From Blasia pusilla (lineage: Eukaryota): a stretch of DNA of 64,000 nucleotides. Location: contig CM114271.1 in the NCBI GenBank assembly GCA_050084515.1, forward strand, positions 48,174,001-48,238,000, read 5' to 3'. The notes beneath the pieces were generated by a model that worked only from the letters and a program-made list of their open reading frames with translations, ran no database searches and was not told the origin of the DNA. A program made the position numbers and the translations under genes. Positions 722 to 30,799 of this stretch are shown here, piece after piece. How positions within the stretch are numbered: position 1 is the first letter of the stretch; each line of letters begins with the position of its first letter.

Positions 722-1555
722 GTTGGAAAAATCTCGTTTTTTATTACCTCCGAAGGAACCTCGGAAATGTACATTTGATGTAGTCTATGATTTCTTCAAC
801 CTCGTCATCTACAAATATACTCCTAACTCTCCTAGGTTCCTCTACAAAAGGAATGTCTTGGGATACAAGTGGCTCCTGTGGCCGATTATAGACGGGGATC
901 GAAAATGTTAGCGAATTTGAGAGCCTTGGCCCCCCCCTAGGTACACCATAACGGTCCCATGTAACCTGATTTGAGTCCCACCGCCTTCCTCGGTGGTATA
1001 TCTTGTACGCTCTATAATGTGACACCCATCCAGTATCAATATGTGCTTCGTCCTTGAAAATACCATGATGGCAATCCCACAAGTAGTAGGAATCCAGCAC
1101 GTCTGAGAGAAGAGAAGAAGCCTACGCCTTGTTTGACGATACTAGGGGAAGGTGCCAAAGTGAAGAAGCCGGCCAAACTGCCTCTTAAGTTGGACCAAGA
1201 GGGAAAGAGTCTGATCACTCACTTAACCAACGTGTTGGAATCCGACAGGTTGCCTAGAAGTGGTTAAAAAGGTGCAGTGGTCAAAAAGTGAAAAGTTGCA
1301 AGTCGTGGAAATCCGACGGGTTGCAAATTAGAAGTCCTCGGAGTACATAGACAATCACAGTCGAAAAGACACAAAAGATATTCAGCAAACTTTTAGAAAC
1401 ACCACCATCGTTCGAAAAAATTTTGTCCTTTATTAGATCCGAAAGAAGCTCGGAACTGTACATTTCATCTATTCTATGAATTATTTTGCCCTCGTCATCA
1501 AATAAATCCCTACTCCAAACGTTGCAATCAAGCTGGGTCCTTGAGTTCTTTGAAC

Positions 1556-4500
1556 TCACTCATCATTGTTCGAGAGCTCTTGCAAAATTACTTTCCGCCT
1601 TGCCCTCCCGATTTTTGGAATCGTGTTAAGTGACGATGGTGTCACTACCAATGGTGGGTGTGGAACCGGAGCTCTCGGCTTCAGAGGAGAGTTGTACGCC
1701 CCAACTAGCCTCTCGTAATCTGCCTTTGCCTCCTTGCAAAGGTCAAATAGTTCCTGCCTTCCCTCGAGGCAGAGAATGTTCGTGCCACTCTGCCAGGCAC
1801 CTTTGATACTCGCCCCTGAAAGGCCTACTAAGTCAAACACCAAGTCACCCAGCCTTGAGCAAAGCTCGATGAGCGTTTGCATCAGGGCTCGCGACTTTTC
1901 CCTTCCTCCAAGTAGTGGCGTACCGTCTTGCATGAAAATTCCCGGGGGGAAATTGTATAAACTATCTAAGCTGTACCCATCGGAGCATGGATCCACAGGA
2001 TCCAGGATCTTAAACACCTAGAAGTTGTGCTCGGGCCGAACGAAGCAATAAACATAGGAGTGGTCCATCTGTAAAGAAGCACGTTGGAAACAATGTCAGC
2101 AACTTGGCCAATGGTCTACTCTCAGTATGGTGACATAATGTGCAACACGTCCCCAAAGAACTTCGCTTAACCCCAGAGAACTTCTTTATAATACTAACAT
2201 TGGAGCAACCGGTTGTAGTCCGACGGGTTGTTTTTGTCCATGACCAATCCGTCGGAAGGCGACGGGTTGCTCGCTTAGACCCTGTCGGACAAATTCTCAT
2301 CCCACAAGCGCAACCCCGAGGGCAAATTAGCGACCAAGAGATCCACCGCCACCTCTTTGACCACCCCATGGACCGTCCAGGGAGCGTGCCCGTTTCGTTG
2401 AAGCTTCTATCCCAACGTTGTCAATTTCTCAATGGCGGGTGTCGACGCTTGGGAATTGAAACTTTTCAGCTCATCCACTAGATTCGTGAAGTGAAGGATG
2501 ACGCTTGTCCGGGTCGTTGTTTCTCTATGTCTTCCCAAGGATGATGGACTGTATTCCACATCCTAGTGTGCTCCTTGGGACAACCCTGGCGCCTCTCGCT
2601 TCCACTTCTCCTCAGTCTGCGGTCTGCTTGTTGGGGTCTCTATGACCTCAGACTCTTGTGGGGTTTTTCTCGCGGAGGAACTGGTCCGACCCTCTCTCCC
2701 CGCTCGCTCGGACGATTTCGACTCTGGCCTTGAATCTTCAGCCTCTCTTTGGGAAGACTCGGCCTCGGAATTCTTCGATCCCCTCGCCTTGCCTTTGAGA
2801 CCCGCTGTAGATTTTTCTTTGGTTTTGTGGACCTTGGACGCCAACTCCGCTGTCTCGAGGGCTTGCTCTTCCGCATCTCCTTCGAAAAAGTCTTCATGCT
2901 GCACAAAATTGGGGATGCCGTCCCTACCTGCGGCCACCGCATCATAAAGCAGGCGTAGATCTTTCTCCGTTATGTCCTCAGGGTCGTTGAAGTCCATCCA
3001 AATCGGGCAATTCTCCACCTCCCAATTGGACATGCTATGAGCCATCTCCGTGAATGTCTCTCCATCAGGCGGAGAAGCCCATAATTTGCAGGCTGCCGGT
3101 ATTTTTTGCCAGGTACCTGCATTCTTACAATGGACGAGGTACCTGAACACCATGCGTTGGGCAGCTCTTTAGTCGAACTGCATTGGCCGCTTGCTCCTGA
3201 AGATCTCGCTTCTTCTTTGCAAAATCCCTTTTCTTCCCCTCAATTTCTTCGTCAAGGTCTGCCTGAGGGAGGATGCAATCCTTGAACATCATCCTGAAAC
3301 CTGGGTTTTTGATGGGCTTGTCCCGGATGTCATCGAGCCAAAGTTTGAAATCATCAGCACTCTCTAGGTTTGCTTCCTCCACAAGTGGCTCTATTCTTTT
3401 CAGCTCTGCTTGGAGACCGTCGAGCATGGACTTCCCGATAAGCCGCAACGCATCCCAGAATAACCATTTGCGGAGCCAATGGGAGATCAGTCGATCAGAG
3501 ACACCCAGAGGATGGTGTGCCGCCCTCTTTTGGGCCTCTGTGCCCTCGAGACTAATTTTCATCAATCGTATTCTCGTAAATTTTCTTATTCCAGGCAAGG
3601 CAAATCGATGCACGCGATCGAGAGACACTTTCTCCCCAATCCGACCTTGTGGATATTCATCCCTTTTTCCGTTGGCGCTTGATTATCGCCTTCAGCTCCT
3701 TGTAGAAATCAGGACCAAGTTCGGGGTTGAGAATGGCAATGTAGCGCTGCATCTTGCTTGCCGTGTACTTCATAGCTGCAGATACTGCACCTTGGATGAA
3801 TTTTGCACGCTCAGACACAGACACTTTCTGCCTCCGCTCCAGCTCCAATGCAACACTCTTCTTGGCGGCCTGTATCTTCGACCAGCAAAGGATTGTCACG
3901 GCTGCATCTTGGGTAATAAATTTATTTGCCCTAGTCTTCTTTTTTATTTGTGCACCCTTTGCCAACATCTCATTTACAAGGGCGTCGCCCAAGAACCCCT
4001 TGTACTGTGTCGGGTGCGTCGTTAGCACTTTCTTCACCCGATCGCAATCCTGGATCCAGTGGTGGGTGACATTTCCCTCCGATACAATCCTGCACATCCA
4101 AACTCAATCTAAGAAATTTTGTAAGGTACATGGGTTCCTGCAACCCGTCGGACTCCGACAGGTCGTTACAGCTCAAGGTCGGATTGTAGCAACTAGCTAA
4201 ATTTTGCAACCCATCGAAGTCCAACGGATTGCATTCAGATTTGTGATTGCCTGGTTTCAACCCGTCGGACTCCGACGGGTTGTTAGATAGTCGGTATCAA
4301 AAGTGAAGATATCAACCCGTCGGAGTCTGACAAGTTGCGCAATGTCAATGAAAACTGCAATTTGACGCCAAAAATGTAGCTCCCAACTTTCAAATGCAAC
4401 CTGTCGGACCCCGTCGAGTTGCTTTCGGCCAAAAACCTCCAAAAATAGCTTCAAGTCAAGCAACCCGTCGGACTCTGACGAGTTTCTTTCTTCAAAAAAC

Positions 4501-6018
4501 ATCCAAAAAATGCGGCCACTCGAGCAACTCGTCGGACTCCGACGAGTTGCTTTCTTCAAAATACATCCAAAGAATGCGGCCATTCAAGCAACTCGTCAAA
4601 CTCCGACGAGTTGCTTTGGGCCAAAAACATCCTAAACCTGTGGTCAGTCGAACAACTCGTCGGAGTCCGAGGAGTTGGCCAAAAGCATCCTAAACCAGTG
4701 TTCAGTCGAGCAACTCGTCGGAGTCCGACAAGTTGCTTTCCAGATGTTGCACCCCAAAAATAGTGGCGAGTCAAACATCTTGTCGGAGTCCGACGGTTTG
4801 CAGCAAGAAGAAACTTACGTGTTCATGGCATGCATGGCCATCTCCACCGTTGCCATGTGATGAGGGTATGGATGAAGCACCACTGCCTTCACGCAAAAAT
4901 GTGCCTCCAAGGAGTTTGGGCGCTCCTCTGCAAACTTTGTCCACGCCATGAACCTGTGATTTCCATCCCAGATGAAGAAATATAGGTTCCTCATCCTGCT
5001 GAATTCCGTCCCCTCTATCGCCCTTCTGAATTCCTGATCTTTCATCCTCCAGAATGTGTCGAGCGATTCCAAGTCCTCCTCCATAATGAGTGCTTAGGTT
5101 CCATGGCCATTATAAGGCTGAACATAGAACGGAGGGAAGTTGTCGACGTAGGATGTTGTCGCCGTCGATTGTTTGAGCTTCGCAATATCCTCGTCAGACT
5201 GAATTTCGCGGACGTACTCCATTGTCCGCAATCGGCAGAGTGGAATTCTCCGAGCGTTGTGGCCCTCCATCAGTGCCATCTGCTTTACCACCTGTCACAA
5301 CGGGGACAAGATCAATAAGCTACACTGAATTGCCAATGAATTGCAACATGGACCTTCACATAATTCAAAAAACACAGATCCTCTCTTACGCGCTCGAAGA
5401 TTGGGTCGGTGTCTTGGCCAGCCAACTGCTCTGAGATAGCAGTTGGCAAGTCCACTGGAAACTCGTCGATCCGATAGAGGTCGATTTCTTCCGCCGGGCT
5501 TAGAGACGAGGATGACCGCTCTCCTGCTTCTTCAGCGATGTCCACCATCTCCATGCTGGCGATCATCATGACCTCATCGTCCGTGACTTGAACTTTGGCC
5601 GTTTCCGCTATATTGATTGTGTCCTCGGACTTCATCCGGGACATTTTCCGCATCTCAACACTTTTGGTTGGACGGGCAGGGCTTTCTTCAATGGCTATTT
5701 CTTTTTCCCTCCGAGCTTTAGCCAATTCTGCTCTCCTCACCGACGCATCTAGACGCTTCGTTTCTCGCTTTTCGTCGGCGACCCTTTCTTCAAGGCCTGC
5801 GACGCCTCAACCTCTGCGTTTTGTTTATCGAGCGCCTCCTGTACACGTTTTGCAAGAAACTCCTGCTTGTGCATCTCCGCTTCCCTTTCCTGCTCCTCAA
5901 TTTCTTGTTGCCTTATCTCATTGGCCGAACGAGGCCCTAGAGATGGTGATCCAGGAGTCCTCATGGACTTGGGAGTGAAGTTCCCACCCTTGTTTGCTTG
6001 AGATTTTTTCCTCGTCAT
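1556..6018 (-). pseudogene. ParB/Srx-like + beta-class DNA amino-methyltransferase-like fusion gene, 4 coding exons, disrupted
   Basis: ATG 6018; intron 1 5389-5292 (phase 0); exon 2 5291-4819 with RIPLCRLRTMEYVREIQSDEDIAKLKQS...FFIWDGNHRFMAW...VKAVVL...AMHAMN; intron 2 4818-4090 (AC|G joins in frame); last exon has EKSRALMQTLIELCSRLGDLVFDLVGLSGASIKGAWQSGTNILCLE; frameshifts, stops and a deletion near 2290. Confidence 0.82.
4394..4802. repeat. Tandem array of ~65-bp units, each with a GCAAC(C/T)CGTCGGA-N-TCCGACG(G/A)GTTGC palindrome, inside intron 2
   Basis: Palindromes near 4395, 4460, 4524, 4589, 4652, 4710, 4775; intervening sequences are homologous to each other. Confidence 0.85.
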
Positions 6019-6106
6019 TTTTCCCAAAAATGCCTCCACCTATGTGCACGATGAATCGCTTGATGAGTCGCCTTGCTGATGTCGAGATGAGTTGCCTTGA
6101 TGGGTA

Positions 6107-6180
6107 GCTCGAATTGTCTCGCGATTGTTCGCTCGAATCGTCTCGCGATCGTTCGCTCGTATCGTCTCGCGATGAGTCAC
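6107..6180 (-). repeat. Short tandem repeat (~23 bp x3, CGATCGCGAGACGATTCGAG-like) upstream of the ParB-MTase ATG
   Basis: Also present at ~62935-63005 in copy H. Confidence 0.7.
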
Positions 6181-6273
6181 CGTGTAAAGCGCCCCTTGGT
6201 ATCTGGTCAGTTGCTGCGCGGGAGAGCAATTGAGATCGCAAAATGAAAAACCGGAAATGAGCGATTTCTCCCC

Positions 6274-7231
6274 TATTTATACTTTTCGAGCCGTTGGGCT
6301 GACCGTTGGGTCGCATCGTCCTTCCGACGGCGACGTGCCGGCCGTTACGGAGGTACCCGCGCAATCCGTCGGAGACCATTGGATTGCACGCTTCCCTCAT
6401 CAAGGGATAACAAAGCGGGCTTCCCGCACAACTTGTCGGAGGCCGACAAGTTGCATGCTTCCTTCATGTAAGCGAAACAAGGCAAGGCCCTTGCGCAACC
6501 CGTCTAAGGGCGACGGGTTGCACGCCTCGCCGTCTTTGGGCAAGAAGGTGCAGCACCCGTGGAACTCGTCGGAAACAGACGGTTTGCACGCTTCCTTCAT
6601 GTAAGTGTTACACCGTGAGATGATTGGGCAACCCGTCTGATGCTGACGGGTTGCGCGCCTCCGCCGTCTCCGGGCATGAAGGCGCGGTATCCGCGCAACT
6701 TCGTTGACGGGTTGCCAACCTCGTTCATGTTTGCGTTACAAGGTAAAGCAGAAGCGTGCAACCTGTCCAAAGCCTACGGGTTGCACGCCTTGCTTAGCTT
6801 GGGTTAATAGTTGAGTTACCAGGGCAAGCCGTCGGTTATCGACAGGTTGCACACTTTCCTATCCCTCGGGAAACAATGCGACAACGTATTGTTCCGAGGA
6901 AACCCATTGCAATCCGACGGGTCACAACATGTACCATGAGTTGGAAAATCCCGAAAAAACAAGCGATATCTTTTGTTTGATGCTAGCAAAATCGCCTCAA
7001 AAGATCTTTGGTCGGCAAGAAGGGTGTACCAACCCAACGGACTCCGACAGGTTCCAACAAAATGAAGTGTGCTTCGCAACCCACGTCTCTGCTTCCCAAA
7101 TTCTATAACCCACCTGACTCCAACAGGTTGCAAGAGAATTGAATCCATTGTGTCAAAAAATTTCACCTACCAAACTTCATCTTGTCAGTCAAATTTTGTC
7201 AGGAGAATCTGAGTTCCTATTCAATATAAAT
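6274..7231. promoter_or_regulatory. Putative bidirectional promoter region with two outward TATA boxes flanking a palindrome array
   Basis: TATAAATA on - strand at 6274-6281 (copy H 62830-62837); TATAAAT at 7225-7231 (copy H ~61574-61580); about ten degenerate CAACCCGTC/GACGGGTTG palindromes between them. Confidence 0.55.
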
Positions 7232-7276
7232 TAAACATTCTCATTCTCATTCTTCTCCCGTTGGAATCTTCTAGGA

Positions 7277-10200
7277 ATGGATAATTATGTGAAGCTCACT
7301 TGTGGCAGTCATCTAGAAATCAATCAGAAATCGTTCGACCGCAAGCTCTTGAGTCTTTCATAGCAGTGGATGAAAATTTTCTCTCAGTTCGATTTCTTCT
7401 CCAAATTGGAACCATCTTTGTATCCAAGGATGTTAGGATGGACAGTACAGAGGACATTATAGGTGAGACAGTCCAGCCAGTGATTGCAGACCGTAAAGTA
7501 TGGAATCTCCTACCTCTAGCAAATGGTCAATACAAAGTTTACGGCTTGCCCCTAAATTCCTTTGTTTCCCAAGTAGACGGTCGAGAATTTCCTAGTGCAT
7601 CGAGCTCTACGTTTGCAACTCCTAGCTCAGTAGATCTGGCTTTGACTCCAACTTCACACGCTCGTAACAATGTTGTTCTTCCTGAAGAGATTCCGGATGT
7701 TATCAACCTCAATGGATATGTCGGACACCAACTGGGCCCTCTGTCCGCCTACTCATTCCTCTTGCGAGTATCAGGCAATAGTTTGCTTTCTTCTCTGGCC
7801 TTGAAAATATTCAAGCATATTCTTGTCGACGAGCTGCCACCCACGTACCATGGTAATTGCATTTTTTAGTTGCCTCCACTTGTTTCTCCTGCTCAAAAGA
7901 TAGATGGAGGACGCTTGAAGGGTATGGACAGAAATTTTGATTGTCATCGATGGTGCAGGCTTCAACGGACTAGTGCTTCAATTCCAGATGGTCCTTGGAT
8001 TTTCTCTCGCCGCCAATGCGTTGGAGCCTTGGAGTGTAGAAGTCCAGCATGCCCGTATTTAGAGCGCAATGGGCGAGTCAATACGTCGTAATTCCCCCCC
8101 AAGAATGCAGAAACTCCATACGAGGTCAGTGCCACCATACCGCCGGGAGGACATCGATGTCCTCATTGTCAGGCATCCCCCTTCTACGTTGGAGCGTGTC
8201 CTGCATACATATTTTTCATTCTCCACGACTTGGGCTCCACGTCAGAGTACACAAGGCTGGCAGTTCATGTTGGCTCCCACACTTATCCTGTGACCGATGC
8301 AATTCAGAGACACATCAAGGAGGATGTGGCAAAGAAAGTTGCCGAGGTCTACAGAAACTCTCCGGGTTCAAAGCCCGGAGTGATCAAGCTCACAACAGCA
8401 TCACAAATTTGTGAACAATTGCTTGGAATCCCTCGATAGGGGGAGATCACGTCGGCTAAGGAGAAACAACTCTACAAAAATCTCGCATTTCTTGCTGATC
8501 CTGAATGCTTCCGGAATTTGCTGCGTCAAATACGGGTTTTGGATGGAAAGACGGCCAAAATGAATGCCATCACCTGAATCAAGGCCAACTCCAAATTTCC
8601 ATTCATTCAGAGATGGCAGTTCATGGGCCAAGGAGGCAAGGGATCCAGGTCGGTCAAGTGGCCTCGACCTTATAGATGGAATGAGGGAAGGGGAAGATCT
8701 TTACGGCAGCTGGGTAAGCTTTGATATTTGCTATAGAGTGCTGAACGGATGGTTGACAATGGGTGCTCACGTTTATGACCATGTGGAGAAGGGACTCAAA
8801 ACTATATTTGTCTATGAAGTAAAAGCAGAAGACGTTGGCAGTTTGAAGATGTGCTAGTTACTCTTATTGGAGGTGGTGAAGGAAAACAAAAGGCCACCTC
8901 CGGAAATTTATGGGTTCATGGCGGACAATGCACAACCAGGGTGGATTGCTATCAGGGAAGTGTTCTCGGGTGGAGAGGTTCAACCGGAGAGGGAAAGGTC
9001 GGATGCTTTCCATTGGCAAGAGTCTGTGACCCGGTACACCAAATCTTGCATCAAGGAGAATAAGAGGACAAAGCATGTCGCTCTACTCGAACGCTGCAAG
9101 GACAACAAAACCTTGAAACAGGCCATGGAATGCCAAGAAGAACTTCAAGGGTGGTGGAGGAAGCATGCGATTGAGGGGAAGTAAAAAGGGTTGTGCTCTT
9201 GGTTGAGTTGGTGGACTGTACGTATGAGACAATGGGGAAACTTCATGCGGCAGGTAAGTTCACTATTTCGTGTTGTCAAGCTCACGCTGAGAATTGTTTG
9301 TAAAGTTGCAGCTCAAGTTGAGAAGCATGGGAACTATAGGGATTTCAAACCGAAGAAACCAAGCAATTTTTTGGATGCGACAAGTTGCCCGAGTGTGCAA
9401 CCTGTTCGAAACGGACGGGTTGCCTGAGTGTGCAACCAGTCGGAAACCGACGGGTTGCATCCAGAATTTTGGTGCAACCCGTATACAAATATGCAAGTCG
9501 CATGTTTACAAGGCCTGCAAATAGTTCAACCCGGATGGGTTTCGGATGACTTGCACTTGGATCTTCTTGCCCGGAGTGGCCAAAGGTTCTTGCAACCTGT
9601 CGGAATCGGACGGGTTGCAGTAGGTGTTTCGTGGGTGTTGCAACACGTCGGGAACCGAGGGGTTGCAGAGTCGTTCATGGGATACCTCGGCCTTACAACC
9701 CGTCTGGTTCCGAAAGGTAGCTTATTTCTTTGACTTCTGAGCTATTTTCGTTCCCTTCTAACATTGCCATCGTTGCAGGGATTGAACATTCATGAAAATA
9801 CCCTCTGCCCCAACACAAGTGGAGCAGAAAGTGTTCATTCCTCCTGGAGGTCGTCACAAGCATGCCAACAAATTTCACTTGTGGAGGCATGCCAACAAGA
9901 CCAAGCAAGAGCAATGCTACAGTCTGCAACATCCCATATCTTCCTCACAAAAGGCATAACAAAAGGAAGGGGGTCTTCGATCTACGAGCTCTATGTCAGG
10001 GCGGCTGTGAGATCTGGTGATGAAAAACTCTATGTGAATGCCTTCAACTGGTGCGTAGCTGGAACTCCCCTCAAGCAAGACGTACACATTGGTGGGGACA
10101 TTTGTGGGCGGGTTTCAAGATGTCCCATACAGATGGTGGTAGAGCAGTCCGAACGAGACTCGTGGAGACCAGATAAGTATCTTGATTTCACGCAACTGAA

Positions 10201-10345
10201 GAGGCAGCATCGAGGAACGAATCCGGTGATTGATTTGGATGAGGAAATTACGCCGCCCAGGTATTCGGGGACCCCGGACCGCTCCCAAATCCATGATGGA
10301 GTAACTTCTCCAACATCAGTGAATGAAAATTGTGGGACTGCTTAA
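7277..10345 (+). pseudogene. Mutator-like (MULE) DDE transposase, 2 exons, disrupted, C-terminus deleted
   Basis: ATG 7277 (MDNYVKLTCG); Zn finger CRSPAC...CPHC...HTYP; WVSFDICYRV (D), GFMADNA (D), DAFHW; intron 9254-9778 (GTAAGT...TTGCAG, phase 0); PNTSGAESVHSSW (E). Confidence 0.85.
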
Positions 10346-10599
10346 TAATTGAGCAAAAAAGTGCAAAAAAATTCACACAAAAAGTTTCCTCTCTTCAACT
10401 CAACGGAAAATCTCCTTAAAAAAAAGTATCTATTTCGGTTGAAGGTAGTTTCCTCTCTCCTCTCTTCCTCTCTTCCTCTCCTCTTACCGCACCTCGAAAG
10501 ATTCTATGTAGAGTCAAGAAGTGCTCAACGTCTTTTCAAGGGATGTAGTACTTCTTTGGGGCTAACATTGATCGTTCCATGTGCAATAACATTGATTTT

Positions 10600-17200: not shown

Positions 17201-20200
17201 GAAGGTTGAAGAGCTTATCTTCGCTCCCTCTAGTGAGAACCAAGAAACAACCCATATCACTCAGATACGCGTCGGCAAAAGAAAACAACAACGCGATCTG
17301 GTCGTACGAAAGCGGGACATTCCAGTTTGGGATAGTGTCAGATGGATTTTTGTCCCACAAGAAAAACCCAGAAGGCAAATCCGCAATGAGGAGGTCCACC
17401 GCCACCTCCTCAACCACCCCATGCACCGTCCAGGGGGCGTGCCCATTTCGAAGGAGTTTTCATCACAGCACGGTCAATTTGTCGATGGCAGGTGTCGACT
17501 CCTAAGAACTGAAACTCTGCAGCTCATCGACAAGATGAGTCAAGTGAACAAGGACACTTGTCCTGATGGTTTTTTCCCTATGGCTGCCCAAGGATGATGG
17601 AGTGTATATCACATCCTTATCTCCTCCCTCGGACGAACAAGATGCCTCCCGCTTCCGCTTCTCCCGAGTCTGCTGTCGGCTTGTGGGAGTCTCTATTACC
17701 TCAAACTCCACAAGAGTTTTCTTGGACGAGGACCTGGTTAGGCCCTCTCGCCCCGCTTGCCCGGACGATTCTACCTCTCACCTTGAGGACTTAGCCTCTT
17801 TTCTAGAAGACTCTGCCTCAGATTTCCTCGATCCCTTCGCCTTCCTCTTTGGTGGTGACGACCTTGCCCACCAACTCCGCTGTCTCAAGGGCTTGCTCCT
17901 CCGCATCTCCTTCGAAAAAATTGTCACGTTGCACAAAGTTTGGAATGTCATCCCTACCTGCAACCACAGCATCATACACCTCCCAGTCGGACATGCCCTG
18001 TCCCATCTTCATGTCGTACATGAAGAATGCCTCTCCATCAGGCGCAGAAGCCCAAAATTTGCAGGTTGCCGGTAATTTTTGCCAGGTACCTGCATTCTTA
18101 CAATTGATGAGGTACCTATACACCATCCGCTCAGCAGCTCTTTGTCGAGATGACTTGGCCGCCTGGTCCTCAAGGTCCCGCTTCTTCTTTGCAAAATCTT
18201 GTTTTTTGGCATCTATTTCTTCATGCAGGTGTGCCTAAGGGAGGATGTGATTCTTGAACATCGTCCTGAATCCGGGGTTTTTCGTGGGCACTATTTTGAA
18301 CTATGTCATCAAGTCATAGTTCAAAATCTTCTGCAACCTCTAGGTTTGCTTCTTCTGGAATTGGCTCAATCTTCTTCAGCTCCGCTTGAAGATCCACGAG
18401 CATGGACTTCCCCAGAAGGCGTAACGCGTCCCAGAATGACCATTCCCGTACCCAATGGGAGATCACTGGATCTGAAACTCCCGAAGGACGGTGTGCCGCC
18501 CGCTTTTGGTCCTTAGTGCCCTCGAGACTGATTTTCATCAGTCAGATTCGCCTAAACTCGGATATCCCAGACAGTGCAAATTTGTGCATGTGTTCTAGAG
18601 ACACTTTCTCGCCGATCCGACCCTGTGGATCTTCGTCTCTCTTCCGCTGGCGCTTGATTATTGCCTTGAGCTCTTTGTAAAACTCTGGACCAAGTTCGGG
18701 GTTGAGAATTGCAATGTAACGCTCCATCTTGCTTGTAGTGTACTTTGTAGCTACAGATACAGAAACATGAATAAACTTTGCACATTTCGACGCTGACACG
18801 TTCTCTCTTCGCTCCAATTCCAACGAAGCACTCTTCTTGGCGGCTGGATCTTGGACCAACATAGGATTGTGACGGCTGCATCTTGGGAAATGAAGGTATT
18901 TGCCCAAGTCTTATTTTTTATTTGAGCTCCCTTTGCCAGCATCTCATTTACCAGACCGTCGCCAAGGAATCCCTTGTACTCTGCCCGGTGCGTCGTAAGC
19001 ACCTTCTTCGCCCTGTTGCAATCCTGGATCCAATGGTGGGTGACGTTCCCCTCCGATACAATCCTGCACATCCAAACATAAGGTAAGAATACTACAACCT
19101 ATCGGGTTCTTGCAACCCGTCGAATTCCGCCAGGTCGTAATTGTGTCAACCCATGGGGGTCGTAATGGTAGCATAGAGATAAATGTTGCAATCCGTCGGA
19201 GTCCGACGGGTTGCAACATGTATCTTTGTGTTACACTTATTGCAACACTCTTGAAATTTTTAGAGAGAATTGCAACCCATCAAAGTCCGAAAGGTCGCAC
19301 TCTCTTTTCGTGACTTTCTGGTCCAACCGATTTAGTCATTGGTTACAACTCGTCGGACTCCGATGGGTTGTAGAATGACTTCAATTCGGAGACAGGTTTC
19401 CGGAAAAAAACTGCACATATCCACCCGTTGGAGTCCGACAGGTTGCGCAATGCCTTGTAAAGCTGGAATTGGACGCCTAAAAGCAAGCTCTCGTACTCTG
19501 ACCACCTACTCTAGGGGGGGAAATGCAACTCGTCGGAGTCCGACGAGTTGCTTTTAGGCGTCCGATGATTTGTTACCTCTCGTTGTGCAACCCGTCGGAG
19601 TCCGACCGATTGCAGAACAAATAAATCATGCATTTATTTTTCCACTCGCTGATGTTCGACTGGCTTCAGTATCCCGGATTAATTTGGTATGCTTGGCCAC
19701 CAAGCAACTCGTCGGACTCAGACGGTTTGCTTTACTATGAAATTGACCACAAAGAGGATAGTGGCAAGAGACTCAAATCATTCTTGACCATCTTTAAGCT
19801 TTCCAATTATTCAACATGTATGACTCCGACAGGTTGAAGCAATCAAACTTAAGGAAGAGGAAACTGATGTATTCATCGCATGCATTGCCATTTCCACCAT
19901 TGCCATGTGATGAAGAAATGGATGGAGCACCACTGCCTTCACGTAAAAAATGCGCCTCCAATGAATTTGGGCGCTCCTCTGCTGTCGCGCCCCTACTCTC
20001 CTTGAACGCCAATCTCTAGTGTTGCGGAAGCGTACGTTCAGTAGGACACGGTCTCATCGCCGATCTGCACCCAAACACGCATTCTCGTTAGTCGGGTCCG
20101 TGCCAACCAGCGTTCCAACCCACCGAGTTCTCAACTTGGCGTCTCATCAAGCTCAACCTTCCTTAATTCCTAGTTTCCAAAACATGGCAAGTCCTTCAAG

Positions 20201-22621
20201 ACTTGGAACAAACTTCCTGGTTAGTCTAGGGATCTGAAACGGCACTTGCGCGCCTAGTGATCCCAAATGTTCAACGGACCTCGTGTGAGTAAACCGAGAC
20301 CCAAGTAATTGAGTCGCGGGGTGAAATCCAAGAGGGATGTCTAAAATCGCCTCAATAGACTTGGTGCAAGTTTTCCAATCCAACCCCCAAACTCGCGTTC
20401 CGTTCCATGCCCTTGAGCCGCCCCGCGGCGCCCAAAGTGGGGTTTGGGTTCCAAGCACTCTCGGAGACCTTCCCCCTTACTTGTACTTCTGGGGTTCTCC
20501 AATAACCCCCCTTTGGAAAAGAAGGGTCGGGCCCTTCATTGTGGCCCTCAACCCGACTCTACTTATAGTTGTTTCCGGGTTTTTTCTCAGCTGATGCTTA
20601 AGCATTTGCAAAGATCTTTAGTGCGTTTGAACCGGCTTTCCATAAGCCTTCCAACGCATCCTTTTTTAATTCAAACGCATCTTGGCGCTAAAAGTTATGG
20701 CCATAAATACAGTCGGAAACTCTCAAACGCTAGTGGCGTTCCAAATCCGGATTCTTCCTTTGGCAACCCACTTCCTAGACTCAACTTCTTTCAAGTCTTG
20801 TTCGGCGTTTGGTCCAGGTTTCTCAGTCGTGACCATAACATCTGAAACGCGAAGCCTCGCTTTCGTCTCATCTCTTGTCTCTTCTTCGAGACCAATCCAA
20901 CGCGCAAACCATCTTAGCGTGAGCCCGCTTATGTTCTGATGTTCTGCTTTGGCACTCGTTTGGTCATGAGGGTCGCAACATCTGCAAACTGCGTCCACGC
21001 CATGTACCTGTGGTTTCCATCCCACATGAAGAAGTAAAGGTTCCGCATCCAGCTAAATTTGGTTCCTTCAATCGCTTTTCTGAACTCCTGATCTCTTATC
21101 CTCCAGAAAGTATCCAATGCCTCCAAGTCCTCTTCCGTCACCAACGCTTGGGTTCCATGTTCATTGTAAGGCTGAGCATAGAACGGAGGGAAGCTATTGA
21201 CATAGGATGCAGTCGCTGCCGACTGTTTGAGCTTTGCAATATCCTCCTCCAATTGAATTTTGCGGACGTACTCCATTGTCCGCAATCCACAGAGTGGAAT
21301 TCTTGGGGCATTCTGGCCCTCCATCAGTGCCATCTGCTTAATAACCTGCCACAATGGGGACCAAGTCAATAAAATAAAATGTTCTGCCAATGAATTGCAT
21401 AATGAGCCTTCACATAACTCAACTTTTTCTTACCCGCTCAAAGATTGGGTCGGTGTCTAGGCCCGCCAGCTGCTCTGGGAGAGCATCTGGCAAGTCCACG
21501 GGAAACTCATCGATCTGATAAAGGTTGATTTCTTCCACACGGCTCAAAGACAACGAAGACTCTTCTCCTGCTTCTTCAGAGATGTCCACCATCTCCACAC
21601 TTGCTGTCCTCATGACCTCATCATTTGTCACTTGAACTTCGGCCGTTTTCTCAGCCAATTTTAGATTCATGGTGTCCCCAGACCTCATCGGAGACATTTC
21701 TTGCATCTTAACACTCTGTTGGACGAGCATGGCTTTCTTCAATAGCAATTGCTTTTTCCCTTTGAGCTTTCGCCAATTTTGCTCTCCTCAAAGAGGCTTC
21801 AAGACGCTTCTTCTTGCATTTCTTGTCCGCGACTCTTTTCTTGAAGGCCTCCGATGCCTCAGCCTCGGTGTTTTGCTTAGCAAGCTCCTCCAGTACACGT
21901 TTTGCTAGAACCTTTTGCCTGTCCATATCTGCTTCCCTTTCCCGCTTCTCTATTTCTTGTTGCCTTATCTCATTTGCCGAACGAGGATCTGAAGATGGTG
22001 ACATCGGAGTCCTGATGGACTTGGGAGTGATGCTCCCTACCTTGGTTGCTTGTGTTTTCTTGTCATGGTGCACGTTGGGTCAATTCTTCCTCCTCAAAAG
22101 TCTAATCTGCTCCTGTGCACGATAGATCCCTCGAAGTGTTTCGTGATGAAGCACCATGACCCTAAACCCAACTCTCTTAGAGTTTTGTGATGAAGTGCCG
22201 TGACCCTCCAACGGATGGGCTTGCCAAAATCGAACCCTCTAAGCGTCAGGTGCTAGATCTTTGTAACCTTCTAGTGAATTGGTGATGTAACCGAGTTTGG
22301 CAGCGGAAAGGTAACGCCAGCTGCTACGAGGAAGAGCAAATGAAATCGCGAAATGAAAAAAGAAAATGATCGAAACCTTAGCCTTTTATACTTTTCGAGC
22401 CGTTGAGCTGACCGTTGGGTTGTTGGGTCATACCGGTGGCGACGTGTCGGCCATTATGGAACTTTGCACGTGGGAATTCGGGCATACCGTTGGTCTCCGA
22501 CGGGTTGCAAGCTTCCCTCGTCTTGGGGATGCAGGGCGAGTTACCAAGGCAACCTGTTCGAGACCGAAGGGTTGCACGTATCCCTCATCCTCGGGTAACA
22601 GGGCGAGGTACTGAGGCAACC
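14269..22621. mobile_element. Copy B (more diverged) of the MULE-like element: left end through ParB-MTase pseudogene to promoter
   Basis: Starts GGGGCTGGTATTCTGGC...GAGAGGAAGAGAGG at 14269; - strand pieces 16063-16338 (MTase C), 17082-17426 (VDLLIADLPSG), 18751-19071, 20929-21390 (FFMWDGNHRY), 21708-22073. Confidence 0.85.
19983..20980. mobile_element. Solo LTR (998 bp) with 5-bp target-site duplication
   Basis: Begins TGTCGCGCCC, ends GGGTCGCAACA; TCTGC on both sides (19978-19982, 20981-20985); removing it restores the ParB exon seen at 4910-4945. Confidence 0.85.
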
Positions 22622-26067: not shown

Positions 26068-28937
26068 TCACTCGTCATCGTCCGAGAGCTCTTGCAAAAT
26101 CACTTTTGGCCTTGCCCTCCCGATTTTGGGAATCGTTGGAAGTGACGATGGAGTCACTACCAAGGGTGGCTCTGGAACCGGAGCTCTCGGCTTCGGTGGA
26201 GAGTTGTACGCCCCAACCAGCCTTTCGTATTCTGCCTTTGCCTCCTTGCAAAGGTCAAACAGTTCCTGCCTTCCCTCGAGGAAGAGAATGTTCCTGCCAC
26301 TCTGCCAGACGCCTTTGATACTTGCCCCTAAAAGTCCCACTAAGTCGAACACCAAGTCACCCGGCCTTGAGCAGAGCTTGATGAGCGTTTGCATCAGGGC
26401 TAGCGACTTTTCCCTTCCTCCCAGAAGTGGGGTACTGTCTTGCATGTAAATTCCCGGGGGGGAATTATACAAACTATCTAAGCTATACCCATCTGAGCAT
26501 GGATCCACAGGATCCTGGATCTTGAACACCTGGAAATTGTGCTCGGGCCGAACGAAGACGTAGGAGTGGTCCATCTGTAAATCAACACGTTGGAAACAAT
26601 GTGAGAAACTAAAGAAGTCGCCTTGAGAACATTTTCAATAATTGACTTTGGATCAACCTGTCCGAGTCCGACGGGTTGTTTTGTCCCGGACCAGCCCGTC
26701 GCCTTCTGACGGGTTGGTCAGGGAGAAAACAACCCGTCAGGCTCCGTTGTTTTTGTCCGTGAGCAACCTGTCGGAAGGCGACGGGTTGCTGGCCTAGAGC
26801 AGCCCATGCTTGCCTGAGAGCAATCCGTCGCTATCAGACGGGTTGCATCCAAAAACCAAAATCAACTGGGAAAACCCAAAAGAAACTGCAACCCGTCGAT
26901 TTCCGACGGGTTGCAGGTACACCGCGGTTTTCCCTGTATGTGGGAAAGATGCAACCCGTCGGAAATCGACGGGTTGCTCTTAGCCGAGCATGGGCTCTAA
27001 GCCAGCAACCCGTCGCCTTCCGACGGGTTGCTCACGGACAAAAACAACCCAGATTGACTCTCATTATACACATCATTAAAATATAATTGAAATTATAGTA
27101 CAGGAATTGAGCCTTACCCGAATCTGACTCGTTGCGGATCGGAGTGGGTACTCGTTTTTGATGATCCACGATTGTGCCGTCCTCCACTTTAGCGACCTCT
27201 TGACGCACTGGAGGTTGAAGAGCTTTTCCTCACTCCCTCCAGTCAACACCAAGAAGCAGCCCTTGTCACTCAGATAGGCATCTGCAAAGGAGAACAAAAG
27301 TGCAATCTGGTCATAAGTGAGCGGCACATTCCACTCAGGTACCTCGTCCGATGGATTCTCGCCCCAAAGTCGCAACCCCGAGGGCAGATCGGCGATCAAG
27401 AGATCCACCGCAACCTCTTGGACCACTCCATTCACCGTCCGGGCAGCGTGCCCGTTTCGTTGGAGCTTCCGTCCCAGCGTTGTCAATTTTTCGATGGTTG
27501 GTGTTGACGCTTGAGAACTGAAGCTCTTCAGCTCATCCAGTAAAGGAGTGAACTGAAGGAGGACGCTTGTCCGGGTTGTTGTTTGTTTGTGTCTTCCCAA
27601 GGATGATGGGCTGTATTCTCCTTGGGACAACCCAGGCACCTCTCGCTTCCGCTTCTCCCTGGCCTGGGGACGGCTTGTCGGGGTTTCTATGACCTCAGAT
27701 TCTGGTGGAGTTTTTTTCGCCGAGGATCTGGTTCGACCCTCTCTCCCCGCTCGTCCGGACGATTCCGCCTCTGGCCTTGAATCTTCAGCCTCTCTTTGGG
27801 AAGACTCGGCCTCTGAATTTTTCCCTCCCCTCGCCTTGCCTTTGAGACCCGCTGTGGATTTGTCTTTGGATGTGCGGACCTTGGAAGCTAACTCAACTGT
27901 CTCGTGGGCCTGCTCTTCTGCATCTCCTCCGAAGAAGTCTTCAGGCTGGACGAAATTGGGGATGTCGTCTTGTCCTGAGGCCACTGCATCATGAAGTAGG
28001 TACCTCGTCTAGTGTAATGCTGTCGAACAGAATCAGCCGTCTGCTCCTGTAGATCTCGCTTCTTCTTCGCTTGATCCCGTTTGTTCCCCTCTACTTCTTC
28101 ATCAAGCTCTGCCTGAGGGAGGACGCAAACCTTGAACATGGTCTTGAATCCTGGGTTTTTGGTTGGCTTGTCCTGGATGTCGTCGAGCCAAACCTCGAAA
28201 TCTCCAAACTTTCAAGGTTTGCTTCCGGCGGAATGGGCTCTAATCTTCTGAGCTCCGCTTGCAGACCGTCCAGCACGGACTTCCCAATTACCCGCAACGC
28301 GTCCCAGAACGACAATTCGCGTAGCCAATGCGAGATCACTGGATCGGACACACCCGGAGGATGGTGTGCCGCCCTCTTCTGGGCCTCTGAGCCCTCGTGA
28401 CTGATTTTCATCAGTCGTATCCTCCTAAACTTGCTTATCCCGGACAACGCAAACCGATGCACGCTATCCACCGACACTTTCTCCCCAATCCGACCATGCG
28501 GATCTTCATCCCTCTTCCGCTGGCGCTTGATAATCACCTTCAGCTCCTTGTAGAACTGCGGACCAAGTTCGGGATTGAGAATGTTGATGTATCGCTGCAT
28601 CTTGCTCGCCGTGTATTTCGTTGCAGCAGATACTGCAGCTTGGATGAATTTGGCGCGCTCAAACGCAGATACCTTCTCCCTCCGCTCCAGCTCCAATGCA
28701 TCGCTTTTCTTTGCGGCATGTATCTTCGACCAGCAAAGGATGGTTACGGCTGCATCTTGAGAAATAAACTTGTTTGCCCAAGTTTTCTTCTTAATCTGAG
28801 CACCCTTTGCAAGCATCTGATTGACAAGGGCATCGCCCAAGAACCCCTTGTACTCTCCCGGGTGCGTTGTAAGCACCTTCCTCACCCGATCGCAGTCCTG
28901 GATCCAGTGGTGGGTGACATTCCCCTCCGATACAATC
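26068..28937 (-). pseudogene. Exons 3-4 of the ParB-MTase gene; best-preserved methyltransferase domain
   Basis: VDLLIADLPSG...LLFSFADAYLSDKGCFLVL...SWIIKN...SQIR | intron 27117-26575 (phase 0) | MDHSYVFVRP...GGREKSLALMQTLIKLCSRPGDLVFDLVGLLGASIKGVWQSGRNILFLE. Confidence 0.82.
26746..27050. repeat. ~300-bp fold-back built from nested palindromes in intron 3
   Basis: TTGTTTTTGTCCGTGAGCAAC... at the left arm and ...GTTGCTCACGGACAAAAACAA at the right arm; central CAACCCGTCG/CGACGGGTTG palindrome at ~26890-26913. Confidence 0.8.
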
Positions 28938-30799
28938 CTGCACATCCAAACTCAACCCGTCAGGAAATTACATGGGTTCCTGCAACCCGTCGGACTCCGA
29001 CGGGTCGTCACAGCTGAAGGTCGGATTCTAGCAACGAGCTAAATGATGCAACCCGTTGGAGTCCAACAGATTGCATTCAGATTTGCTAATGCCTAGTAAG
29101 CAAACATCCTTCCTATTCCATTGCCACTCAAGACATCTTTCGTGGCGATGATCTCCATTTTTGCCTCCCGAGCTGATGCAATTCGCTTTGCTCTCTCCAC
29201 CGTTGGCCTACACATTCTGTTTCTCTTCACTCCATTTCTAGACTCAAACAGAAATAGTGGATTGAGATCATCCACCTTCTCCGGGTGCATGTTGACATCA
29301 ATCTTGGGTTGAATACGAAATGCAAAGGACTCTGTAATGCGAACATGCTCCAAACTTCCCCCGTCTACGAGTCTAAAACCGGAACTTGTAAGATTGTCCA
29401 CTTCGTCTTGAGTGCAGTTCGTACCTACGGCGATGGGCCAAATCGTGGGGGTATTCCCCGGAGCTCCAATGGCAGCCGGATAAGACTTCCGGAAAGTGCA
29501 AGATTCATTTGGGCAGAGGAAGTACTTCAATTGATCCCCGGTTCTCGTGAAATGATGAAAGGTTTTGAGTCCCCAAAACCCAGGCAGTGGTTTAGGGTCC
29601 TTGTATAGTTCTTATTTAGGAAAGTGCCGCAAGCTCTCCTAATGCCATCAGATCCTGCCCTACAGGTGGGTCCAGCACCCAGGAAACACCTATTGCAACT
29701 CGTCCGATTCTGACGGATTGCAAGAACCTTTGGCCACTCCGGGCTGGAAGATCCAAGTGCAAGTCATCCGAAACCCATCCGGGTCGAACTATTTACAGGC
29801 CTTGTATACATGCCACTTGCATACTTGCATATGGGTTGCACCAAAATTCTGGATGCAACCCGTCGGATTCCGACGACTTGCACACTCGGGCAACCCGTCG
29901 CATCCAACAGCTTGCTTGGTTTCTTCGGTTTGAAATCCCTATAGTTCCCACGCTTCTCAACTTGAGCTGCAACTTAACAAACAATTCTCAGCGTGAGCTT
30001 GACAAGACAAAATTGTGAACTCACCTGCCGCATGAAGTTTCCCCATTGTCTCATACGTAGAGTCCACCAACTAATCCAAGAGCACAACTCTTTGTACTTC
30101 CCCTCAATCGCATGCTTCCTCCACCACACATGAAGTTCTTCTTGGCATTGCATGGCCTGTTTCAAGGTTATGCTGTCCTTGCAGCGTTGGAGTAGAGTGA
30201 AATGCTCTGTCCTCTTATTCTCCTTGATGCAAGATTTGGTGTACCGGGTCATAGATTGTTGCCAATGGAAAGCATCCGACCTTTCCCTCTCCGGTTGAAC
30301 CTCTCCACCCCAGAACACTTCGCAAATAGCAATCCACCCAGATTGTGCATTGTCCACCATGAACCCATAAATTTCCGGAGGTGGCCTTTTATTTTCCTTC
30401 ACCACCTCCAATAAGAGTAACCAACACATCTTCAAACTTCCAACGTCTTCTGCTTTTACTTCACAGACAAATATAGTTTTGAGTCCCTTCTCCACATGGT
30501 CATAAACGTGAGCACCCATCGTCAACCATCCGTTCAGCACTCTGTAGCAAATATCAAAGCTTACCTAGCTGCCGTAAAGATCTTCCCCTTCCCTCATGCG
30601 ATCTATAAGATCGAGGCCACTCGACGGACCTGTGGTTGACATTTTGAAGACATAGGCCCTGGATCCCTCGCCTCCTTGGCCCATGAACTTCCATCTCTGA
30701 ATGAATGGAAATCTGGAGTTGGCCTTGATTGTGGTAATGGCATCCATTTTGGCCGTCTTTCCATCCATAACCCGTATTTGACGCAGAAAATTCCTCAGT

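Follow-up and report, generated by a model that had tools for sequence, protein, structure and literature searches.

Brief descriptions of transposon accessory proteins that carry a ParB-like domain together with a DNA methylase already exist for brown, red and green algae. In Ectocarpus, the element Sola1-1_Ec32 is described as encoding, opposite its transposase, a protein of 1104 aa that combines a ParB-like domain with an N4C/N6A methylase domain, and a citing sentence of the Ectocarpus paper attributes green-algal ParB-methylases to Iyer 2011 (PubMed 21507349). In Plavaka elements of Bostrychia, PAG3, in which ParB is combined with a 2OG oxygenase, is described as adjoining tandem inverted-repeat arrays (10.1101/2025.02.11.637652). 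A survey of the ParB fold reports fusions with N6_N4 methylases to be enriched in phages and prophages, and the binding of ATP, CTP or GTP to depend on the Box II arginine (10.1101/2025.10.10.680097). A full-text literature search returned no ParB-methylase gene described in a land-plant transposon; the case presented here, from a land plant and a Mutator-like element (MULE), adds to the algal ones. The first-pass annotation of the locus had missed these published precedents.

The locus lies in a 64,000-nt stretch of Blasia pusilla DNA (contig CM114271.1, positions 48,174,001 to 48,238,000), referred to here as the window, whose numbering is used throughout. The minus-strand segment 4819-5291 is probably exon 2 of a decayed accessory gene copy belonging to a Mutator-like DNA transposon, and the intact protein is then a fusion of a ParB/Srx domain with a methyltransferase. 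From N- to C-terminus, this protein of about 1,100 aa is composed of a disordered charged region, the ParB/Srx domain, a helical domain of about 250 aa, a disordered linker and a beta-class N6-adenine/N4-cytosine DNA methyltransferase domain.

Like the algal proteins, it has an N-terminal ParB-like domain and a methylase predicted for 4mC or 6mA, is about 1,100 aa long, and its gene, part of a large DNA transposon, runs on the other strand from the transposase; as with red-algal Plavaka PAG3, inverted-repeat arrays lie nearby. However, the carriers differ (Sola1 and Plavaka in the algae, a Mutator-like element here), the likeness drawn here is one of architecture, and the hosts here are seed-free land plants, namely liverwort, moss, lycophyte and fern species. 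In this way, a group of transposon helpers with few descriptions so far is extended from algae to land plants and to another transposon superfamily.

The accessory protein is also the eukaryotic-transposon counterpart of the phage and prophage ParB-N6_N4 methylase fusions. As in the PF02195 + PF01555 fusions, a ParB/Srx fold with its Box II arginine precedes a beta-class amino-methyltransferase, and the gene is carried by a mobile element; the exon peptide also has phage DNA methylases among its structural neighbours. In contrast, no sequence similarity between the phage fusions and the plant protein is detectable. The plant protein is much longer, has the 250-aa helical domain and disordered linkers between its two domains, and is interrupted by introns. 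Its DGNHR box is preceded by a two-helix insert, and its motif IV is D-x-P-T/S/F as opposed to DPPY.

The gene is read on the minus strand. Exon 1 (5390-6018, with the ATG at 6018-6016) encodes a charged and probably disordered N-terminal region, as suggested by the sequence of a second copy and by the N-terminus of the moss homologue P0151 (pLDDT <50). Sequence reading places intron 1 (98 nt, GT..AG, phase 0) at 5292-5389, joining ...PIFER|VVKQ. The segment 4819-5291 is exactly one exon, with GT..AG introns on both sides, and encodes a complete ParB/Srx-fold domain of 157 aa with a DGNHR box, as assigned by translation, AF2 modelling, Foldseek and homologues; from 5291 to 4819 it reads VVKQMALMEGHNARRIPLCRLRTMEYVREIQSDEDIAKLKQS...FFIWDGNHRFMAW...VKAVVL...AMHAMN. 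Intron 2 (4090-4818, 729 nt, GT..AG, phase 2) joins AC|G to give ...AMNT-IVSEGNVTHHWIQ, and the alignment to liverwort proteins carries on across this joint. From exon 3 onward (2563-4089), the helical domain and then a charged linker were located by tblastn with the Riccia proteins P0147 and P0022, which gave collinear matches at 4070-3684, 3664-3317 and 3192-2839. The methyltransferase motif IV region lies at 2317-2355 and reads VDLLVANLPSG followed by a stop, a better copy having ADLPSG at 27393-27376. The last coding exon (1556-2062), with motif I VFDLVGLSGA at 1840-1811, contributes the C-terminal portion of the beta-class methyltransferase (PF01555, E 0.015; alignment to P0147). Both Riccia proteins are collinear with 5249-1679, which supports the gene model.

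Splicing was assessed in three raw-read RNA runs (X3, X4 and X5) under the same species label as the window. Intron 2 was spliced in 6 reads (1, 3 and 2 in the respective runs). No read crossed the intron 1 junction, and none of the three runs had any coverage over 5313-5914 (depth 0). Exon 1 was uncovered, and 621 of the 740 aligned reads were only 90-95% identical to this copy. The first-pass annotation had described a domain exon bounded by introns in a plant DNA transposon, and both the GT..AG introns and the transposon context were found; all the motif strings it quoted occur in the minus-strand translation. Its claim that both flanking introns join in frame agrees with the GT..AG joints on either side, with RNA reads at the downstream junction only. 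The insertion of about 35 aa that it placed before the box corresponds in the AF2 model to a family-specific two-helix insert, located between strand 3 (residues 55-58) and the strand leading into the box (105-109), in which W77, W81 and F88 are nearly invariant among homologues.

The AF2 model of the exon peptide, built on a 117-sequence alignment, had a pLDDT of 92 and a pTM of 0.86. In the Foldseek comparison with PDB, the matches listed, down to an E-value of about 0.4, all belonged to the ParB/Srx superfamily: Noc 7ng0 (E 1.3e-3, TMq 0.47), ParB 6sdk, 7bnr and 7bm8, KorB 8qa9, sulfiredoxin (Srx) 6ky4, 3hy2 and 1xw3, SbnI 5ujd, PadC 6ryk, SerK 5x0b, and 1vk1. Their probabilities ranged from 0.66 to 1.00 and TMq from 0.32 to 0.47, with a best E-value of 1.3e-3; the statistics are marginal, with 0 matches at E ≤ 1e-3 and TM values of 0.4-0.53. 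Against BFVD, 4 matches were obtained at E ≤ 1e-3 (best 2.1e-4), and the named ones among those listed were mostly ParB-like and included two phage DNA methylases. The Atlas structure neighbours include DndB clusters. On the basis of this model, the exon is predicted to encode a bacterial-style ParB/sulfiredoxin-fold domain.

Membership in ParB/Srx, as modelled, is at the level of fold only. PF02195 (ParB_N) matched neither the window peptide at E ≤ 1 nor any of the 40 members of alignment A1 at E ≤ 0.1, and the 120 short homologues listed carried no precomputed Pfam domains. Searches of PDB chain sequences with the peptide and with a profile gave only irrelevant matches. Within A1, Pfam returned only sub-threshold matches to DUF1015 (2 of 40) and to DndB PF14072 (1 of 40, E 0.066). 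The commonest NCBIfam match was to the DGQHR model TIGR03187, in 5 of 117 members (best E 1e-3), all well short of significance; the window peptide itself matched neither TIGR03187 nor PF14072. The ParB-like identity put forward in the first-pass annotation is therefore borne out by the fold, the Foldseek neighbours of this confident model being almost all ParB, Noc, KorB, sulfiredoxin, SbnI or SerK, and not by sequence, with no Pfam ParB_N match.

The box is of the G-x-H-R type found in DGQHR/DndB proteins and in sulfiredoxin, not GERR, and DGNHR is predicted to be a phosphate-binding box. DGQHR proteins and DndB (TIGR03187, PF14072) share the D-G-(Q/N)-H-R box and gave the best, though weak, sequence-model matches; however, no dnd or other defence context is present here, and the plant domain is fused to a methylase. 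With the canonical CTP clamps ParB, Noc and KorB, the common features are the fold of the N-terminal domain (top PDB matches) and an arginine at the Box II position, whereas the GERR box is lacking and neither an HTH, a C-terminal dimerisation domain nor a ParA partner was detected. The ParB HTH (PF17762), other ParB domains and the C-terminal dimerisation domain were not found in full-length P0147, P0022, P0019, P0149, P0151, P0162 and P0164. C-terminal to the ParB/Srx domain, the helical domain (about 250 aa) was modelled in blocks mostly with pLDDT 84-95. For ParB research, the family would represent an intron-containing eukaryotic branch of the ParB/Srx fold outside any Pfam family.

HMMER searches of 1.84 billion proteins with the exon peptide yielded 141 homologues at E ≤ 1e-3 (best 2.8e-21), all of the named ones hypothetical proteins, from a liverwort, a moss, a lycophyte and ferns. 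These homologues, and further copies in the window, indicate that the domain is not a chance occurrence. DGNHR was present in 30 of 39 sequences in alignment A1 and in 78 of 116 in alignment A2, where [DEN]GNHR was found in 94; the conservation of the box, on which the first reading had made its proposal depend, is borne out by these counts. G110, N111, H112 and R113 are each at least 90% conserved in A1, so that the arginine of the G-x-x-R Box II, or P-motif, is present. Long homologues of the same architecture numbered 25, many of them Riccia paralogues, in four plant lineages, and intact homologues are about 1,100-1,200 aa long. Between window copies, dN/dS was 0.13-0.17 for the ParB exon, 0.12 for the helical domain and 0.23-0.34 for the methylase exon. 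Purifying selection acted on all three coding parts as the copies diverged (dN/dS 0.12-0.34). Consequently, the element appears to need the accessory protein.

The methyltransferase partner, which the first-pass annotation had missed, suggesting only a phylogeny against phage ParB-methylase fusions, was recognised by PF01555 above the gathering score (26.7 bits) in three homologues: Ceratodon P0151 (30.4 bits, profile positions 2-217 of 221), Diphasiastrum P0162 (33.8 bits) and Adiantum P0164 (27.7 bits). The window's own decayed last exons scored 15.7 and 15.2 bits, under that threshold. The full-length P0151 model gave 39 PDB matches at E ≤ 1e-3, of which those listed were beta-class amino-methyltransferases (M1.HpyAVI, CcrM, M.BceJIV, M.RsrI, M.MboIIA, rotifer N4CMT and M.PvuII). 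Motif IV precedes motif I in all aligned homologues, motif I being FDPFVGCGST in Diphasiastrum.

The canonical catalytic motif IV is (D/S)-P-P-(Y/F). This form was absent from 12/12 aligned homologues and from the window copies. The homologues (12/12) instead carry D-x-P-T/S/F/D, with N-x-P-T in one, and the window copies DLPS or NLPS (ADLPSG, ANLPSG). Judged from this motif, the methylase may be weak, re-targeted or inactive. A link to Marchantia DN4MT1 was considered and dropped on the motif alone, the Marchantia enzymes having a canonical TSPPY, unlike the transposon family. A tblastn search of 50,697 phage records with P0151 gave only 2 weak matches (E 7e-5 and 2e-3), confined to the methylase part. 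In a word-index search against shorter proteins, the methylase part gave 16 short matches of 49-86% identity that resemble pieces of this same plant family. With no prokaryotic or phage sequence relative found in these searches, descent from bacteria or phages is not demonstrated. To our knowledge, 6mA and 4mC are little studied in bryophytes, lycophytes and ferns, and for plant DNA methylation the family provides candidate non-5mC writers in these groups.

The accessory gene and a MULE-type transposase gene are arranged head to head within one element. Judging by how its nested copies overlap, this element measures about 13 kb, and such copies fill the window (72-95% identity by self-alignment). 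The two genes are separated by a divergent intergenic region (6019-7284) with a palindrome array at 6428-7029. A decayed copy of the transposase gene occupies 7285-10345 on the plus strand, as seen by self-alignment, with an intron at about 9250-9774 whose GT..AG joint is present in 4 reads. An open paralogue of 677 aa lies at 30640-32673. The head-to-head arrangement occurs in two copies (6018 versus 7285; 62313-64000 versus 62490-58491, in the copy at 58491-64000). The Atlas feature neighbours of the transposase P0003 are MULE clusters (0.95; 9 of the 10 best matches in one family or clan), and Pfam gave no match to it, including PF10551 at E ≤ 1. Pfam searches of ten neighbouring ORFs and ten large ORFs returned only an RVT_1 fragment.

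Element ends recur at 14269, 24242, 51787 and 36868 and at 34706, 22622 and 57140, with an imperfect GA-rich inverted repeat (score 61 versus a shuffle maximum of 41). No 9-11-bp target-site duplication was readable, because every copy is nested or truncated and the flanks of the seven element ends are unpaired. The assignment to MULE-type transposons is accordingly a soft one. Arrays of a 27-bp palindrome are found in the intergenic space, close to the element's ends and within introns of both the accessory and the transposase gene, many of them centred on GANTC; intron 2 alone holds 10 units of GCAACCCGTC-N7-GACGGGTTGC.

For the intact protein, we tentatively propose a mechanism that, taken as a whole, is possible but doubtful: an NTP-switched ParB/Srx module would hold the methylase on the element's own DNA. 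The ParB/Srx domain would bind a nucleotide triphosphate and act as a switch or loading module that keeps the enzyme on this DNA, possibly at the 27-bp palindrome arrays. The methylase would mark the element with 6mA or 4mC, and the treatment of the element by the host would change as a result. A more specific version, in which an NTP-gated clamp of the ParB type loads at the palindrome arrays, carries the D-x-P-T/S/F methyltransferase along and writes 6mA/4mC in cis, seems unlikely as it stands. If true, land plants would harbour an epigenetic writer encoded by a transposon, with which the element counters host silencing or turns it to its own advantage. The first-pass annotation, too, had offered a role like that of the bacterial ParB sliding clamps only as a conjecture.

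The non-canonical motif IV also bears on a different function, somewhat unlikely overall, in which the protein is an inactive methylase that binds DNA or chromatin and regulates the element, like the ATP-dependent repressor DndB or the inactive partner subunits of methylases. The ParB/Srx domain would then be an ATP-binding switch and the methylase fold a scaffold binding SAM or DNA. The first proline of motif IV is missing in 12/12 homologues and the aromatic residue in 9/12, the box has the G-x-H-R form known from DGQHR/DndB and sulfiredoxin, and a lycophyte homologue has acquired a Myb DNA-binding domain. In the ParB-fold survey, a DndB-like protein bound ATP and GTP (10.1101/2025.10.10.680097). 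However, motif I and the whole methylase fold are kept, and dN/dS values of 0.23-0.34 indicate purifying selection on the methylase exon. The aromatic is moreover found at motif IV in the moss (DTPF) and in one of the two ferns considered (DVPF), the other, P0164, being unaligned there.

A nuclease role, in which the domain aids transposition or attacks competing DNA independently of the methylase, would follow the original 'ParB-like nuclease' annotation. Some ParB/Srx-fold proteins cut DNA, and many of the exon peptide's structural neighbours bear the label of ParB-like nuclease domain proteins. This role is improbable: no nuclease motif was seen, the conserved G-N-H-R residues are those of the phosphate-binding box, the characterised neighbours among the PDB matches are NTP binders, and DNA cleavage is already provided by the transposase.

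Under the preferred reading of an element-borne ParB/Srx-methyltransferase gene, the window contains several copies in different states of decay. In the copy at 4819-5291, an in-frame TAA at residue 66 (5094-5096, minus strand) breaks the domain; a paralogous second copy has CAA at this codon. The copy at 4819-5291 therefore cannot make the domain. The stop codon had not been mentioned in the first-pass annotation. Exon 1 contains a frameshift near 5750-5806, with ORFs 5749-6039 and 5312-5806 in different frames, and the helical-domain part is likewise shifted (4103-3657 versus 3682-3125), whereas its reading frame is unbroken in a third copy (28951-28091). One further in-frame stop lies upstream of the 1556-2017 ORF in the last coding exon. 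With the in-frame TAA and these other defects, the copy at this locus is a dead pseudogene, embedded in a nest of repeats.

Capture of a host fragment as Pack-MULE-like cargo without a role in the transposon, or a chance resemblance to ParB, is extremely unlikely: MULEs often capture host fragments (PMC12477816) and the copy at 4819-5291 is a pseudogene, but several diverged copies retain the complete multi-exon gene (dN/dS 0.12-0.34), its architecture is common to the 25 long homologues (many of them Riccia paralogues) in four plant lineages, and the fold match is consistent in two libraries (PDB and BFVD).

The second copy of exon 2 (19868-21348, minus strand) has residues 1-123 at 21348-20980 and the rest at 19982-19868, with an insertion of about 1 kb between them. 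Two further copies were found by similarity: a strongly decayed one with several stops at 49049-49360 on the minus strand, and the start of exon 2 at 63884-64000 on the plus strand, in an oppositely oriented element that the window boundary truncates. As regards annotation, about two thirds of the database homologues are gene models that end at the exon-2 boundary.

The ParB/Srx-fold exon under study, exon 2 of a transposon accessory gene, is a single exon of 473 nt at exactly the coordinates given in the first-pass annotation (5291..4819, minus strand). The motifs quoted there are present, the peptide reading VVKQMALMEGHNARRIPLCRLRTMEYVREIQSDEDIAKLKQS...FFIWDGNHRFMAW...CVKAVVL...MAMHAMN. Upstream lies an intron of 98 nt (5389..5292, minus strand; GT..AG, phase 0), which joins ...PIFER to VVKQ; downstream, intron 2 (4818..4090, minus strand; 729 nt, GTAAGT..AG) joins AC to G, giving ...AMNT-IVSEGNVTHHWIQDCDRV. 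Both introns thus have GT..AG borders and keep the frame, as had been proposed, but RNA backs only the downstream one. Six spliced RNA-seq reads cross the intron 2 junction (1, 3 and 2 in three runs carrying the same species label), and liverwort homologues (...AMHNLNASSHATVQYDWIQDAER) align with the reading past this joint. The upstream junction has no supporting reads, depth being zero over 5313-5914 in all three runs.

An in-frame TAA, absent from the first-pass annotation, was found at 5096-5094 (residue 66 of exon 2); copy 2 of the exon (21348-20980 and 19982-19868) has CAA at this codon. The same accessory gene copy is frameshifted within exon 1 and again past exon 3, in a region that copy 3 (e.g., 28951-28091) keeps continuous, and it has one stop ahead of the last ORF and another directly after the catalytic methyltransferase motif IV. 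Because of the TAA, the frameshifts and the further stops, the accessory gene copy at this locus is a pseudogene. Copy 2 exon 2 is interrupted directly past its DGNHR box by an insertion of ~1 kb (19983-20979).

The domain encoded by exon 2 is genuine and conserved. When 1.84 billion representative proteins were scanned exhaustively with HMMER, 141 scored E ≤ 1e-3, of which 36 passed E ≤ 1e-10. No E-value reached 1e-30, the top homologue standing at 2.8e-21 with ~34% identity. A further 239 homologues of comparable length, plus 25 long proteins, came from a profile search of a word-indexed collection. Among the first ten looked up, seven came from the liverwort Riccia sorocarpa, annotated as hypothetical proteins, and one from the fern Adiantum nelumboides; the long set extends the family to a moss (Ceratodon purpureus), a lycophyte (Diphasiastrum complanatum) and Adiantum capillus-veneris. 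The 120 short homologues listed have no precomputed Pfam domain. In the 40-row alignment, L18, Y48, W81 and F88 are invariant, and conservation is 90% or higher at P17, C19, R20, V27, R28, W77, D109, G110, N111, H112, R113, W117, H131, V134 and N157. The DGNHR box is exact in 30 of 39 homologues there and in 78 of 116 in the 117-row alignment, where [DEN]GNHR occurs in 94. Homologues frequently end no more than 3 residues from the AMHxxN column, the exon 2/intron 2 boundary (26/39 and 56/85 in the two alignments, respectively), as expected if the intron position is conserved and many gene models are truncated.

Sequence models did not detect ParB in the exon 2 peptide: Pfam gave DUF1015 alone, below threshold (E 0.013-0.014; 14.8 bits, cut-off 25.8). 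Among 40 family members, DUF1015 appeared in two and DndB in one, also sub-threshold, and the commonest NCBIfam match was the DGQHR domain (5 of 117 members, best E 1e-3). The structural model built with the 117-row alignment was confident (pLDDT 92, pTM 0.86), with the element order strand-strand-helix-strand-[two helices]-strand-helix-strand-helix. Foldseek returned no PDB match at E ≤ 1e-3; the matches listed to about E 0.4 belong to the ParB/Srx superfamily (Noc, ParB, KorB, plant and human sulfiredoxin, SbnI, PadC, archaeal free serine kinase and 1vk1), with probability 0.66-1.00, TMq 0.32-0.47 and best E 1.3e-3. Against predicted viral structures, four matches reached E ≤ 1e-3, and the named ones among the matches listed were mostly ParB-like, including two phage DNA methylases. 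Atlas neighbours of one homologue (P0010), namely ParB_N, DndB and DUF6551, point in the same direction as a lead only. The model and the Foldseek matches therefore agree with the proposed ParB/Srx fold, and neither outcome that would have overturned the first-pass reading (a different predicted fold, or homologues lacking a conserved DGNHR) was observed. The likeness to ParB holds at the level of fold and stops at the box, which is of the G-x-H-R type found in DGQHR/DndB proteins and sulfiredoxin, in contrast to GERR of segregation ParBs. The insertion noticed ahead of the box consists of two helices specific to this family and carries W77, W81 and F88. The P0010 neighbours also include fungal DUF3723 clusters (0.89-0.90), which may hint that DUF3723 is another ParB/Srx-fold family.

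The domain is part of a larger protein. Riccia proteins of ~1,200 aa align collinearly to 5249-1679 (minus strand), and their C-terminal parts match the end of Pfam N6_N4_Mtase slightly under threshold. Scores are lower for window ORFs 1556-2017 (15.7 bits) and 26068-26634 (15.2 bits). The curated cut-off is 26.7 bits, which three homologues exceed: Ceratodon P0151 (30.4 bits, profile positions 2-217 of 221), Diphasiastrum P0162 (33.8 bits) and Adiantum P0164 (27.7 bits). The full-length P0151 model had a mean pLDDT of 63; 10-residue blocks were mostly at 84-98 across residues 220-600 (ParB/Srx and helical domains) and mostly at 61-91 in the methylase core, with low-confidence loops. It gave 39 PDB matches at E ≤ 1e-3, and those listed are beta-class amino-methyltransferases (M1.HpyAVI, CcrM, M.BceJIV, M.RsrI, M.MboIIA, rotifer N4CMT and M.PvuII). 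P0162 additionally bears an N-terminal Myb/SANT domain (PF00249, E 8e-9) ahead of the ParB/Srx and methylase parts, and its motif I has stayed canonical (DPFVGCGST); this protein may have been domesticated or re-targeted.

In the methylase part, motif IV precedes the SAM-binding motif I, which can be recognised both in the lycophyte (FDPFVGCGST) and in the window (VFDLVGLSGA). Motif IV of characterised enzymes is (D/S)PP(Y/F), and Marchantia enzymes have TSPPY. This canonical form was found in none of the 12 aligned homologues or the window copies: all 12 have D-x-P-T/S/F/D (N-x-P-T in one), and the window copies read ADLPSG or ANLPSG. In the main rival explanation, the less likely one, this non-canonical motif would make the accessory protein a regulator and not an enzyme.

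Between diverged window copies, dN/dS was 0.13-0.17 for the ParB/Srx exon (copies 1, the locus under study, and 2; 121 codons), 0.12 for the helical domain (copies 1 and 3; 140 codons) and 0.23-0.34 for the methylase exon (copies 1 and 3; 153 codons). Differences in the ParB/Srx exon numbered 14, 9 and 41 at codon positions 1, 2 and 3. The accessory gene therefore kept its function during the spread of the lineages. Few RNA reads mapped to 1400-10400 (203, 306 and 231 in three runs), and the majority (166, 259 and 196) were only 90-95% identical to copy 1 and therefore derive from related copies. At 5198-5241, 33-48 antisense reads per run match these 44 bases alone and diverge on either side; their flanking sequence encodes a diverged version of the exon 2 peptide, so a distant paralogue is transcribed above the level of copy 1.

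Copies of a single element, 72-95% identical, are nested within one another across the window. One end type (GGGGCTGGTATTCTGGCAGGAGAGAGG...) is found at 14269, 24242, 51787 and, reversed, at 36868; the other (...CCTCTCCTCTTACCGCACCTC) is found at 34706 and, reversed, at 22622 and 57140. The two ends have in common an imperfect inverted repeat rich in GA (local score 61 versus a mean of 25 and maximum of 41 in shuffles); no target-site duplication was readable at the element ends in the window. Between the ends, over ~13 kb as assembled from overlapping copies, the accessory gene and a putative transposase gene stand head to head, an order seen again in the copy at 58491-64000. The transposase intron (9250-9774, GT..AG) is crossed by four spliced reads in one run. 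An open transposase paralogue of 677 aa (30640-32673, plus strand) with a Cys/His-rich N-terminal part had no Pfam match at E ≤ 1. By Atlas features it lies closest to MULE transposase/SWIM clusters (0.95; nine of the ten best matches in one family or clan), and the transposase thus looks like a divergent MULE lineage.

ParB-like/methylase transposon proteins are known from algae. According to the Ectocarpus transposon paper, Sola1-1_Ec32 has a gene opposite its transposase for a 1104-aa protein with ParB-like and N4C/N6A methylase domains. In the Bostrychia preprint (10.1101/2025.02.11.637652), Plavaka accessory proteins with a ParB domain adjoin inverted-repeat arrays, and Iyer et al. 2016 (PMC4738411) report ParB-HTH fused to Dam-type methylases in chlorophytes and chytrids. 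Full-text literature searches turned up no ParB-methylase gene in land plants or Mutator-like elements. The 5291..4819 locus itself is a dead copy.

Fold, box, fusion, transposon context and selection of the accessory protein are established here; beyond these, the ParB/Srx domain may serve the methylase as a nucleotide-binding switch or DNA-loading module. We infer this role from the phage fusions and NTP binding of ParB-fold proteins in a survey (10.1101/2025.10.10.680097). There, N6_N4 methylase fusions characterise phages and prophages, ATP, CTP or GTP is bound in dependence on the Box II arginine, and ATP and GTP binding is reported for DndB-like proteins. The enzyme's target would be the DNA of the element itself, a mode of action already suggested for the algal proteins.

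A palindrome, GCAACCCGTC-N7-GACGGGTTGC, occurs in 97 units in the window versus 0-2 in 20 shuffles, allowing up to 3 mismatches per arm. Its arrays, with a period of ~64 bp, lie at 4140-4710, 6428-7029, 9397-9695, 19188-19704, 26653-27005, 62051-62645 and elsewhere, in intron 2, in the transposase intron, between the genes and near element ends. GANTC is present in 43 of the 97 spacers, including 7/10 and 6/7 in two intron 2 arrays. The palindrome is a possible binding or target site for the accessory protein. An RVT_1 fragment at 50590-51429 (minus strand, E 5.5e-23) shows that the window also holds an unrelated retroelement.
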